A DNA stretch of 32,000 nucleotides from Promethearchaeia archaeon (lineage in GTDB: Archaea; Asgardarchaeota; Lokiarchaeia; Sigyniarchaeales; SOKP01). Shown here one piece after another: positions 5,266-8,885 of the stretch (within the stretch, counting starts at the first letter, position 1; the number at the start of each line of letters is the position of its first letter). The notes beneath the pieces are model-generated. The model was not told the DNA's origin. It saw nothing but the letters and a program-made list of their open reading frames with translations, and searched no databases. Both the position numbers and the translations under genes were made by a program. The stretch spans positions 60,001 through 92,000 of the forward strand of contig JAWOFX010000007.1 in the NCBI GenBank assembly GCA_046497275.1. The letters are read 5' to 3'.

Positions 5266-6615
5266 TTATAGCTTATGAGGTTTTATCTCGGGCACATTTT
5301 CTCCTGCTATTTTCATATAGTTTTTTATTAGTTTTCTTAATTTTTTTCTGACATCATTATAACTTGGATCTTCCACAAGATTTTGATGCTCAAAAGGATC
5401 ATCTTCTAAATTATAGAGGCAATCTTCCCTGTATTTATTACTATTCATAAAAAGAAATCCCGATTTCCTTGGAGCCCTAATTGAGTACTTCCAATTTTTA
5501 GTTCTGATAGCTCTTCCAACTTGGGATTCAGATATTTGAATAAATACCTCCTCAGGCCAATTCTCGTAATCTTCATTGAGTAAGAGCTGTAATGGTTGTC
5601 CTTTCATTTGCTTGGGAACTTCTACTCCTGCGGCTCTTAGTATTGTAGGTGTTATATCGAGAGTATTGACCATTTTATCAATTTCCTTACCCCCTAAGAA
5701 ATCTAATCCTTTTATAATAAGAGGAATATGAATGGAGGAGTCATGACAAGATCTCTTATATTCCCAGTTCCTCGTCTTAAAGTGGCATCCATGATCACTC
5801 ATAAAGAAAATGATGGTATTCTCCAAAATATTTAATTCATTTAATTTTTCATATAATCTTTGAACATTTTTATCTATGCTATTACAGCATCCCAGATAAT
5901 CAGGATAATTCTCTCTTCAATCTCCTTCTAGTCCCTTTAAGTCACCAGGAATCTTATAATTTTTAAATTTCTCTTGAGATGATTTGGGACCTACCATTCT
6001 TTCCATATCATTTTGTTGATGAGGTTCTAAATATGATAAAAATAGAAAAAATGGTTTCTTTTGATTATAAGATTCTAAAAAATCTAAAGCGAAATCTGTA
6101 AGATAATCAACTCTATATCCTTCAAAATCAACTTTATTCATATCAGAATCGAATAGATGACCCTCAAATGGATGGGACGTATTTTCAAGTAAATCGGAAG
6201 CAATCCAAAAATCTTTATATCCGCCTCTACGCTCTGGAGGTATCGGTTTTTCTTGGAAATCTATTTGCTTTTCAATATCTTCTTTTGATGGTAATATTGT
6301 GGATGCTAAATGCCATTTTCCGATATATCCAACGAAATATCCTGCATCAGAAAGATAGTGAGCAATCATTCTTGAATTAATAGGCAATGCGATACCATTA
6401 CGATAACAACCCGTTTCAGTGGCATATAATCCCGTTTGTAGGCAAGATCTGGCTGGACCGCAAACCGGTTGAGACGTAAATGCATTAGTAAATTTTACTC
6501 CCTCTTTTGCTATTTTATCTAAGTTGGGAGATATATCCAATCCTTGTCCATAACATCCTAAAGTATCATGTCTTTGTTGATCAGTAAAAACAAAGAGGAT
6601 ATTTGGGTTTTTCAT
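5266..6615 (-). pseudogene. Sulfatase-like hydrolase (arylsulfatase A family) interrupted by a single in-frame TGA at 5917-5919
   Basis: N-half: NILFVFTDQQRHD, CGPARSCLQTG (CxPxR formylglycine motif), GKWHL. Past the TGA the same frame continues RENYPDYLGCCNSIDKNV...ENTIIFFMSDHG...SIHIPLII...LYNLEDDPFE, so the two track ORFs are one 449-codon gene. Confidence 0.88.
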
Positions 6616-6910
6616 ATTATGTTAAAAGATATTATATTGAATTTGAAATTAATCACTATGATTTCTCAATTATTTAAAATTAATGAAAGAGGGCGTAATT
6701 TGAAACTGAAGATCATTATTCGAAGAAATTCGCTATTATGAGTCGTAAAAATTATATAAATTATAGTTAAAAATATAAAATAGGATTTTTTAGCCCTATT
6801 AAGATGAGATCAAATAAAATTTTGATAAACATTTATAATATTGAAAATGTTATTTTTATAGTATAAATTTTAATAATTTTTAATTAACAAAAAAGTTGTG
6901 AAAATTCAAA

Positions 6911-7234
6911 ATTAGTGAAGATAGAGATATCTGTCCAGTCTGTGGTTTGCCTAGCGAGCTGTGTGTATGCGATTCCCTTAGCGCTGACGAACAGGAAATA
7001 GTAATTTCTAATGGCAGACGAAAATGGGGAAAAGTTGTGACGTTGATTTCCTTTAAAGGAAAAACTGACGCTAATTTAGATCAAATGTTAACAAAGGCTA
7101 AAAAAAAAGTTGGTGCGGGTGGAACATTACGTGGAAACAATACTGTCGAATTACAAGGAGAACATAAGTTTAGAATGAAAAAATTCCTCATAGATATGGG
7201 ATATGATGAGGACAGAATCAGAATAGAAGAATAA
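6911..7234 (+). CDS. sui1: Translation initiation factor SUI1/aIF1, probable AUU start
   Basis: RRKWGKVVT, KKKVGAGGT, VELQGEH motifs. The in-frame sequence upstream of the track's TTG encodes (I)SEDRDICPVCG, completing the archaeal N-terminal CPVCGLPxELCVC. In-frame TGA at 6899-6901, with no ATG/GTG/TTG between it and 6947. Confidence 0.9.
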   Translation: MSEDRDICPVCGLPSELCVCDSLSADEQEIVISNGRRKWGKVVTLISFKGKTDANLDQMLTKAKKKVGAGGTLRGNNTVELQGEHKFRMKKFLIDMGYDEDRIRIEE

Positions 7235-7385
7235 ATTTACTAAATTAATTTTCTACAAAAACGCTTCTTTTTAATATTCTTTTTTTTATTTTTTCTGAGA
7301 TTAATCATAAATTGATTAAAGTGGAAAATTCGAAAAAAGAAGTAAATTATTTATCTTTTTAAAATTCTCTTTAAATTAGATATAA

Positions 7386-8885
7386 ATGCTAGATGTTAAA
7401 AACTTAGGATCTCCCGAAGAATTTTGGAGATATTTTCAAGAAATATCAAAAATTCCTAGATGTTCATGGAAAGAGGAAAAAATAAGAGAATATATTAAAA
7501 ATGAGGCAGAAAGATTCAATTTTGTTGTGGAAACTGATCCAGCAGGTAATTTGATCGTCGATGTTCCTTCAAACCAAGAATCTACCAAAATTTTTATTAT
7601 TCAAAGTCATATGGATATGGTTTGTGAAAAGAATGAAGATATACAACATAATTTTTCTAAAGATCCTCTAAAATTGAAAAAAATTGAATTTGGAGGAGAT
7701 GAATGGATTACAGCTGAAGGGACTACCTTAGGTGCTGATAATGGAGTTGGATTAGCTCTATCTTTAGCTTTAATGGATAAAATCAATAAAAATGAGATTA
7801 AATTAAACAATATAAATCTCAGATTAATTTTTACTGTTAATGAAGAATCTGGGTTATCGGGTGCACTCCATATTGATAAGAAATATATAGATGGGGACTA
7901 TTTAGTGAATTTAGATTGCATGGATGAAAATAGTATAGTAGTTGGAAGTACAGATTGCGAATACTCTATGATCAATATTAAAATAAAACGAGATTCAGAA
8001 ATTAATAAAATTATAGACTTTTTACCCGTAAGAATATCGGTTTCAGGACTACTCGGAGGTCATTCGGGAATTGATATTCACAAAGGGAGGGGAAATGCCA
8101 TAAAAATACTAGCTGAAGTTCTAAAAACAATTGAACAAAAATTTGATTGTTGTGTTGTTTCCTTAGAAGGAGGTGAAAGCTTTAATGCGATTCCGAGAGA
8201 GGCTTCAGCTGATATTTATATTAAAAATAATCAATCAAATGAAATTAAGAATTTAATAAATTCATTGGAGAATTGTTTCAAAAAGAGATTCCAAGGATAT
8301 GAAAATAATATTCAAATTAATATTGAATATGTTCAGGAGGATGAACTTAATTTCAACATTTTTCAAAGAAAAATTCAAAATAAAATTCTCAATATTCTTT
8401 ATCTCCTTCCATTTGGTCCGATCTGTTGGCACCCATTTATGGAAAATCTTGTTCATAGCTCAACTAATTTAGGTACTGTCATGTCGATGAAGAATAAAAT
8501 CCAAATAGAAATATATCAACGCAGTTTTAATCACCAAAATATAGATTTTATTTCAGATCAAATTAAAACATTGTTAGATTTAGCAGATATAACACATAAA
8601 ATTAGTAAAGTTGGAGAATTTACACTTTGGAAACCTGATTTAGATACAAAATTTTTAAAATATGCACAAAATGTTTATAAGAAATTATATAATACCGAAC
8701 CACAAATAAGGTCTGTTCATGCTGTGCTCGAATGCGGTATCTTCAAAAATAAATGCCCTAATTTAGAGATTATTACTTTAGGCCCAACAATAGAGGCGTG
8801 CCATTCTCCTGATGAAAAGTTGAAAATTTCCAGTGTTCAACATACATGGAATTTTTTAATTGCTCTATTAGGACAAATTGAATAA
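7386..8885 (+). CDS. pepD: Aminoacyl-histidine dipeptidase (M20, PepD-like)
   Basis: QSHMDMVCEK, TTLGADNG, FTVNEESGL, GGHSGIDIHKGRGNA, HAVLECG, HSPDEKL. Confidence 0.92.
   Translation: MLDVKNLGSPEEFWRYFQEISKIPRCSWKEEKIREYIKNEAERFNFVVETDPAGNLIVDVPSNQESTKIFIIQSHMDMVCEKNEDIQHNFSKDPLKLKKIEFGGDEWITAEGTTLGADNGVGLALSLALMDKINKNEIKLNNINLRLIFTVNEESGLSGALHIDKKYIDGDYLVNLDCMDENSIVVGSTDCEYSMINIKIKRDSEINKIIDFLPVRISVSGLLGGHSGIDIHKGRGNAIKILAEVLKTIEQKFDCCVVSLEGGESFNAIPREASADIYIKNNQSNEIKNLINSLENCFKKRFQGYENNIQINIEYVQEDELNFNIFQRKIQNKILNILYLLPFGPICWHPFMENLVHSSTNLGTVMSMKNKIQIEIYQRSFNHQNIDFISDQIKTLLDLADITHKISKVGEFTLWKPDLDTKFLKYAQNVYKKLYNTEPQIRSVHAVLECGIFKNKCPNLEIITLGPTIEACHSPDEKLKISSVQHTWNFLIALLGQIE

Follow-up and report, generated by a model that had tools for sequence, protein, structure and literature searches.

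At which codon does translation of the aIF1 gene of a Promethearchaeia archaeon begin, and could that codon allow the factor to limit its own synthesis? The question arises from a stretch of 32,000 nt (designated here as the window) of a genome placed in Lokiarchaeia; Sigyniarchaeales; SOKP01, which corresponds to positions 60,001-92,000 of the forward strand of contig JAWOFX010000007.1 (assembly GCA_046497275.1). The E. coli infC gene, which encodes the bacterial factor IF3, starts at an AUU codon and is subject to translational autorepression, as demonstrated experimentally, AUU starts being almost unique to infC in this bacterium; autoregulation of eukaryotic eIF1 through a poor context of its AUG was reportedly described by Ivanov et al. 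in 2010. The infC case is mentioned in PMC4705826 and PMC3326321, and the work on eIF1 is cited in PMC6237735 and PMC4705826. The original prediction for the window placed the start of aIF1 at an AUU codon and proposed the same negative feedback for the archaeal factor.

Reading frame and start codon of the aIF1 gene

In the frame of aIF1, a TGA stop codon (6899-6901) is followed by AAA, TTC, AAA, ATT (6911-6913), AGT GAA GAT AGA GAT and ATC (6929-6931), then by TGT CCA GTC TGT GGT, which specifies CPVCG (6932-6946), and by TTG (6947-6949), the frame remaining open up to the TAA at 7232-7234. Upstream of the TGA the nearest in-frame stop is the TAA at 6881, and only TTA ACA AAA AAG TTG separates the two. 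The TTG at 6896, immediately before the TGA, was rejected as a candidate since it would represent a start-stop only. The first ATG, GTG or TTG of the frame proper is the TTG at 6947-6949 (plus strand), located within the zinc knuckle, and the sole canonical-start ORF on the list for this gene accordingly runs from this TTG to 7234, with a length of 95 amino acids and without the first two cysteines of the knuckle. The only near-cognate codons between the stop and the knuckle are ATT 6911 and ATC 6929.

When read from the ATT, the coding sequence (6911-7234, plus strand) comprises 107 codons followed by the TAA, and its product matches Pfam PF01253 with 45.7 bits (cut-off 25.5) and NCBIfam NF002096 with 101.7 bits (cut-off 98), the latter over profile positions 2-101 of 102 and with profile position 2 falling on residue 5 as numbered from the ATT. 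The product also aligns with the structure of M. jannaschii aIF1 (4mo0; 78.6 bits), starting from residue 3 of the chain. The N-terminal zinc knuckle CPVCGLPSELCVC (CxxC...CxC; 6932-6970, plus strand) matches the 4mo0 segment ICPRCGLPKELCVC, its cysteines C2, C5, C12 and C14 are invariant (alignment A1), and the conserved RRxxGK loop and GGT...ELQG[DE]H motif correspond residue by residue to 4mo0. Based on these matches the product is identified as a SUI1/aIF1 protein of a normal 107 residues with a zinc knuckle, encoded by a single copy in this 3.85-Mb assembly (98.9% complete); its binding to the small ribosomal subunit and its rejection of near-cognate start codons are assumed by orthology with the S. 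solfataricus and P. abyssi proteins, for which both properties are known. In the NCBI records the protein bears the designation 'stress response translation initiation inhibitor YciH', taken from bacteria and ill-suited to an archaeal aIF1.

Orthologous aIF1 loci were taken from relatives and the frame upstream of the first cysteine was read in each. Within the family to which this genome belongs (f1), 54 of 69 loci, which being related represent few independent events, offer only ATT, ATC or ATA between an in-frame stop (or a point 14 codons upstream) and the knuckle, with no ATG, GTG or TTG; the remaining 15 loci contain a GTG within the ribosome-binding box, followed by an ATT or ATA at -6/-7, which is the usual place. 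Most genera have ATT as this codon, whereas part of genus g5 has ATC and g8 has ATA, and in most relatives in-frame stops are found 1-4 codons ahead of it. The signature of coding sequence begins at the ATT: across 45 distinct family sequences, the downstream entropy is 0-0.46 at codon positions 1 and 2, and 0.8-1.9 at position 3. Moreover, public NCBI protein records, including the record of this gene itself (P0001) and those of relatives, begin with M at the ATT. The start codon of aIF1 is thus very probably ATT 6911-6913 (plus strand), and the arrangement, as it recurs in dozens of independently assembled relatives, is considered to be due neither to chance nor to sequencing error. Read-through of the TGA, or an alternative genetic code, was rejected since TGA terminates 439 of 2825 long ORFs in the genome.

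If translation instead began at ATC 6929 or TTG 6947, or if the gene were damaged or misassembled, the N-terminal peptide in the case of the TTG would be MPSELCVC... as opposed to MSEDRDICPVCG... for the ATT. The TTG is indeed the only canonical in-frame start, and several public gene calls present truncated forms of 84-95 residues. However, with the TTG as the start, the invariant zinc knuckle would lose two of its four cysteines, no Shine-Dalgarno-like box precedes this TTG, and the corresponding position in relatives is L or F encoded by TTG, TTA, CTC, CTT, TTT or TTC, so that a start-capable TTG is not conserved. The Ile that precedes the first Cys is, moreover, conserved as a coding residue in every archaeal aIF1 sampled, the four codons from the ATT to this Ile exhibit conservation of the coding type, ATC 6929 lies 27 nt from the box, and error or misassembly is countered by the many independent assemblies with the same structure. 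Taken together, a downstream start or a damaged gene is regarded as extremely unlikely. The shortened public gene calls, in which the knuckle is lost, include P0004, P0010 and P0044, among others.

The features on which the original prediction relied were all retrieved, as the letters and their translation agree with a frame in which TGA 6899 and ATT 6911 are followed by CPVCG before the first canonical start, with a GTGA (6898-6901) located 9 nt before the ATT, and with a mini-ORF (6898-6915) overlapping the latter. The prediction had left the choice between ATT 6911 and ATC 6929: family conservation and the coding signature favor the former, and the distance of the latter from the box stands against it. 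It had also named a non-AUG codon at the Met-equivalent position of relatives as its test, and an ATG in close relatives as the outcome that would speak against it; the codon is ATT, ATC or ATA throughout the family, and ATG occurs at the aIF1 start in 0 of 69 loci.

The ribosome-binding box, the leader and the overlapping mini-ORF

The aIF1 gene is preceded by an AT-rich intergenic region (6616-6894), which presumably contains its promoter. On the far side of this region is a sulfatase-like ORF that points away from aIF1 (5917-6615, minus strand, as given in the ORF list). As this upstream gene lies on the opposite strand, aIF1 is not translationally coupled to an upstream cistron. On the 3' side of the stop codon a T-rich tract (7266-7300, plus strand) may, as judged by its composition, act as a transcription terminator, and the following gene has its ATG start at 7386. 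The sulfatase-like gene itself is apparently split (5266-6615, minus strand) into the ORF 5917-6615, with an N-terminal part of the CxPxR type, and the ORF 5266-5826, which represents the C-terminal part; approximately 90 nt separate the two, and the split may reflect a frameshift, a decayed gene (pseudogene) or faulty assembly.

Immediately upstream of the aIF1 coding sequence is an imperfect Shine-Dalgarno-like box, GTTGTGA (6895-6901, plus strand; family consensus AAGGTTGTGA), whose TGA is the in-frame stop and whose GTGA ends exactly 9 nt ahead of the ATT. The spacer between box and start codon (6902-6910, plus strand) is of fixed length in most family members, and its sequence varies without 3-base periodicity, while among the 45 distinct family sequences no non-coding columns are better conserved than those from -19 to -10. 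The capacity of the box for pairing was judged by motif enrichment rather than from rRNA, since the only 16S match of the assembly covers model positions 4-828 and lacks the 3' end; the 5-mers most enriched upstream of first ATGs in the genome are xGTGA, GAGGT and AGGTG. When compared with GGAGGTGA, the aIF1 box contains two mismatches, and its spacing of 9 nt compares with a genome mode of 5-6 nt after GTGA; both deviations are conserved. No conserved RNA structure was detected, as RNAalifold predicted no pairs across 16 family leaders and the leader in the window folds no better than shuffled sequences (z = -0.69).

Across the whole genome, ATT, TTG and GTG starts that follow GGTGA occur almost only at a spacing of 6, whereas ATG tolerates spacings of 4-10, an indication that in this genome weak codons depend on both an optimal box and an optimal distance from it. 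As aIF1 combines TGTGA with a spacing of 9, against this rule for weak codons, its start site should be unusually weak and unusually dependent on the permissiveness of initiation. A hint of compensation between codon strength and box strength comes from an Arf-like GTPase: the gene of this genome (L114), with an ATT, has the stronger box GGTGGTGA, and its relatives with ATG (L170-L172) have the weaker boxes AAGGTTAGT and AAGGTAAT.

The same few nucleotides also contain a mini-ORF, GTG AAA ATT CAA AAT TAG (6898-6915, plus strand), whose stop codon overlaps the ATT by one base. Initiation at the GTG of the box (6898), termination at the TAG and re-initiation at the AUU could in principle drive aIF1 synthesis, and the arrangement is widespread, given that a GTG is located 13 nt ahead of the start codon in 49 of 54 family loci and that an equivalent mini-ORF (GTG, four codons and an overlapping stop, uninterrupted) is present in 43 of 54. 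Yet this arrangement arises automatically from a GTGA box, a fixed 9-nt spacer and a second codon of the form A[AG]N, and the mini-ORF therefore looks like a by-product of these three elements. Its GTG also lacks a separate box at a distance that would serve it, while GTG and TTG starts in this genome need a GGTGA at 6 nt. Furthermore, the mini-ORF is cut off prematurely in L002, the closest relative, and in L017, runs on without an overlapping stop in two ATC variants (L008 and L011), and in genera with AGGAAGGAA boxes (L016 and L020) its GTG is absent and the ATT is still kept. A role of the mini-ORF in aIF1 translation is thus considered very unlikely.

Start codons in the genome, in the family and in other archaea

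In order to be counted in a scan of the whole assembly, a codon had to follow a GTGA-type box and to open an ORF of at least 100 codons, and its frame had to be free of canonical starts both upstream of it and over the following 8 codons; raw counts of GGTGA-N-codon combinations obtained without the ORF filter were uninformative, since most GGTGA copies lie inside genes. At a distance of 6 nt from GGTGA, the scan retrieved ATT 16 times, ATG 14, TTG 14, GTG 4 and ATA 3 times, and the control codons AAT, TAT, TTA, AAA and TTT 0, 0, 1, 2 and 0 times, respectively. Apart from aIF1, approximately 16-25 genes appear to start with ATT (about 25 pass the strict filter), which by a rough count corresponds to about 8% of box-led starts. 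Examples are L112 (contig C100), L113 (C157), L114 (C180), L115 (C130), L120 (C172) and L122 (C156), and initiation at the following canonical codon would shorten a Pfam domain in at least six of the ATT-start genes, the domains concerned being ADH_N, the Arf P-loop, IU_nuc_hydro, an HTH domain, SDR and Pyr_redox. By these counts AUU is a regular minority start codon of this genome and is not private to aIF1; the original treatment of AUU as exceptional is weakened to the same extent, and the rare codon in aIF1 is less telling than that of infC in E. coli.

The habit of starting at AUU may extend to other members of the family, for which small numbers were obtained at the same position: 800 kb of another family member contained 2 ATT, 3 ATG and 4 TTG, and 800 kb of a sister-family genome, in which aIF1 starts with TTG, contained 0 ATT versus 8 ATG. 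Use of AUU as a start this often is unusual for a prokaryote, and gene callers restricted to ATG, GTG and TTG truncate aIF1 and other AUU-start genes of these genomes. Considering initiator tRNA, ARAGORN found no tRNA-Met in the assembly, whether run with or without introns.

ATA is a likely start in a further gene, L118 (G000:C109:11184-14532, minus strand), which encodes a 1032-residue HdrA-like protein and in which an ATA follows GTGAGG at 6 nt; the next canonical start is only reached at codon 40, after the first Rossmann domain of this protein. Two more long ORFs present the combination of GGTGA, 6 nt and ATA (L127 on C7 and L128 on C59).

The persistence of ATT starts was then compared between genes. 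Close relatives have ATG instead in four of the five ATT-start genes tested: the nucleoside hydrolase (ATT in 2 of 6, ATG in 4), the HdrA-like protein (ATT in 1 of 14, ATG in 12 and TTG in 1), the Arf-like GTPase (ATT in 1 of 5, ATG in 4) and the SDR (ATT in 1 of 2, ATG in 1). For the Arf-like GTPase, the sequence in this genome reads TAG ATT CCT TCA CGT, and four relatives of the same genus read ATG CCA AGT CGT (N-terminal identity 81-94%), with their ATG at the position of the ATT; such orthologs are the plainest proof that ATT serves as a start in this genome. The fifth gene, encoding an HTH regulator, retained ATT in 5 of 5 cases (this genome and four orthologs of the same genus), with no other starts. 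An ADH-like ATT gene was not counted, since its matches in relatives are paralogs of about 40% identity. In aIF1 the AUH codon is kept down to approximately 50% protein identity, its third base changing to C and A, and not to G. ATT starts elsewhere usually flip within a genus, and a codon that is no more than tolerated would be expected to drift to ATG in aIF1 as well. Its long retention is therefore not the default, and this pattern of turnover, drawn from related loci with few independent events, speaks for selection acting against an AUG start of aIF1. Next to aIF1, the HTH regulator (L120, G000:C172:42780; orthologs L175-L178), whose ATT stands behind GGTGA, represents another gene in which an AUU start is conserved.

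Other initiation-factor genes served as controls. In this genome aIF1A, aIF2-alpha and aIF2-beta all start with ATG. The gene downstream of aIF1 keeps its synteny no further than the genus, and aIF1A was therefore chosen for comparison across relatives; in 30 of these relatives aIF1A starts with ATG in 27 cases, with TTG in 3 and with ATT in 0, and aIF1 has ATG in only 2 of the 30 loci of this sample.

Beyond the family, aIF1 starts mostly with TTG, GTG or ATA elsewhere in the class (ATG in 4 of 22 loci), TTG being the start in Promethearchaeum-like genomes, and over the Asgard phylum the start codon forms a mosaic of ATG, GTG, CTG and ATA. AUA is the sole candidate in families f5, f7, f14, f19 and f20 and in genus g17, and ATA was also found in one member of f23 (ATA loci of the phylum sample: L370, L378-L380, L382, L187, L188, L192, L193, L181 and L026). 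CUG is the sole candidate in f9 and in part of f12 (L356, L357, L363, L364 and L367), and about half of the remaining Asgard families have ATG. This mosaic indicates that very weak aIF1 starts arose repeatedly in Asgard archaea. In other archaeal phyla the aIF1 start is ATG in 67 of 69 loci, TTG in 1 and GTG in 1, these loci having been picked by similarity to the zinc-knuckle pattern so that the sample is not random; the weak-start trait is therefore placed as derived within Asgard archaea. On the basis of these comparisons the AUU start of aIF1 is taken to be real and old, having been kept as AUU, AUC or AUA, and never as AUG, across a family-level clade.

Proposed self-limited synthesis of aIF1 and its alternatives

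The reading that is favored here, with a probability of roughly 0.55, is that aIF1 limits its own synthesis by negative feedback through its AUU start. The single aIF1 gene, probably carried on its own short-leader transcript, would be translated from the AUU at 6911, located 9 nt after the imperfect box GUUGUGA, and the rejection of near-cognate start codons would be the task of aIF1 itself. Initiation at its own AUU would then drop when aIF1 is plentiful and increase when it is scarce, by a feedback resembling those of bacterial infC, with its AUU start, and of eukaryotic eIF1, with its poor AUG context. Given that the other AUU genes have a full GGUGA box at the optimal spacing of 6 nt, and that aIF1 joins a weak codon to a weaker box and a longer spacing, the aIF1 mRNA should be among those most sensitive to the stringency of initiation.

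The plausibility of this feedback derives from three elements, namely the rejection of an AUU mRNA by S. solfataricus aIF1, the selective retention of the codon in aIF1, and the replacement of ATT by ATG in other genes. As to the first, a review states that in vitro aIF1 of S. solfataricus prevents an AUU mRNA from binding, although this mRNA is accepted in the absence of the factor (PMC4705826), and aIF1 has been described to occupy the same site as eIF1 and to destabilize complexes formed on non-AUG codons (PMC6237735). The authors of that study, performed on P. abyssi aIF1, mention the feedback loop of eIF1 and not an archaeal one (PMC6237735), and the sole remark encountered in a review concerns a frameshift suspected in the sui1 gene of S. 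solfataricus. Our literature search found no paper on a non-AUG start or on autoregulation of an archaeal aIF1.

Several considerations weigh against the feedback. A lineage that tolerates AUU may possess an aIF1 that discriminates less against this codon, and a weak start could simply fix a low output. The strongest form of this objection holds that AUU is an ordinary weak start in this lineage, which in aIF1 ensures low constitutive output with no self-feedback. It finds support in the fact that ATT equals ATG in frequency at the best distance from GGTGA, at which control codons are found 0-2 times, in the Pfam domains of at least six ATT genes that the next canonical start would truncate, in the similar pattern of another family member and its absence from the sister family, and in the HTH regulator, which retains ATT across the genus and by which a conserved ATT is not unique to aIF1. 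Such a habit nevertheless leaves unexplained why aIF1 alone of four initiation-factor genes has AUU, why aIF1A has kept ATG in the 30 genomes compared, why no ATG is encountered among 69 aIF1 loci while other ATT starts flip within a genus, and why AUA or CUG appears independently in aIF1 of distant Asgard lineages. In addition, if any discrimination of aIF1 against AUU is left, the feedback follows automatically. The explanation by habit is on balance considered somewhat unlikely.

The frequent use of AUU may also be combined with self-limitation. With AUU being a regular start of about 8% of SD-led genes, the level of aIF1 might serve as a global dial for the whole set of AUU-start genes, its own mRNA, on which the AUU would be set in a deliberately poor context, being the most sensitive and thereby closing the loop. 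This extension, which would combine a codon logic similar to that of IF3 with a context logic similar to that of eIF1, is put forward tentatively and is rather doubtful as it stands. It may even be a low output of aIF1 that allowed AUU starts to become widespread.

With regard to known systems, the proposed self-limitation of aIF1 shares with infC that the gene of a fidelity factor has an AUU as its own start (with AUC or AUA taking its place in some lineages), that this start is conserved over a long evolutionary distance, and that the logic of negative feedback, shown for infC, would be the same. It differs in that IF3 and aIF1 are unrelated proteins and in that AUU starts some two dozen other genes here. 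The relation to eIF1 is of another kind, as aIF1 is its ortholog with the same binding site on the small subunit, and the initiation site conserved on the factor's own mRNA, suboptimal in eIF1, is probably so in aIF1 as well, as judged by the sequence of its imperfect box and by the 9-nt spacing. However, eIF1 keeps an AUG and relies on a weak Kozak context and scanning, whereas aIF1 here involves a near-cognate codon and the placement of a Shine-Dalgarno box, and most archaea sampled use AUG, so that the two are not continuous by descent. The link between the bacterial and eukaryotic versions that had originally been drawn is consequently reduced to an analogy, the ATG in 67 of 69 loci of other archaea marking the trait as one derived within Asgard archaea. 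The aIF1 proteins of M. jannaschii and P. abyssi (4mo0, 5jb3 and 5jbh) and of S. solfataricus belong to the same family and share the zinc knuckle, the RRxxGK loop and the GGT...ELQG[DE]H motif; they differ in the start, which is ATG in nearly all of the loci sampled outside Asgard archaea (67/69), and no autoregulation of any of the three was described in the papers found.

Self-limited synthesis of a fidelity factor is known in bacteria (IF3) and in eukaryotes (eIF1). If the proposed feedback is true, the AUU, AUC or AUA start of aIF1 would represent a principle reached in all three domains, one strengthened by the independent AUA and CUG forms of other Asgard lineages, and the case would concern the archaeal group nearest to eukaryotes and the ortholog of eIF1 itself.

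Several relatives (G023, G045, G053, G126, G130, G139 and G106) have a second aIF1 paralog (L019, L195-L199 and L240), in whose leaders a perfect GAGGTGA box is located 8 nt before an ATT or ATA, the weak codon thus being kept together with a strong box.
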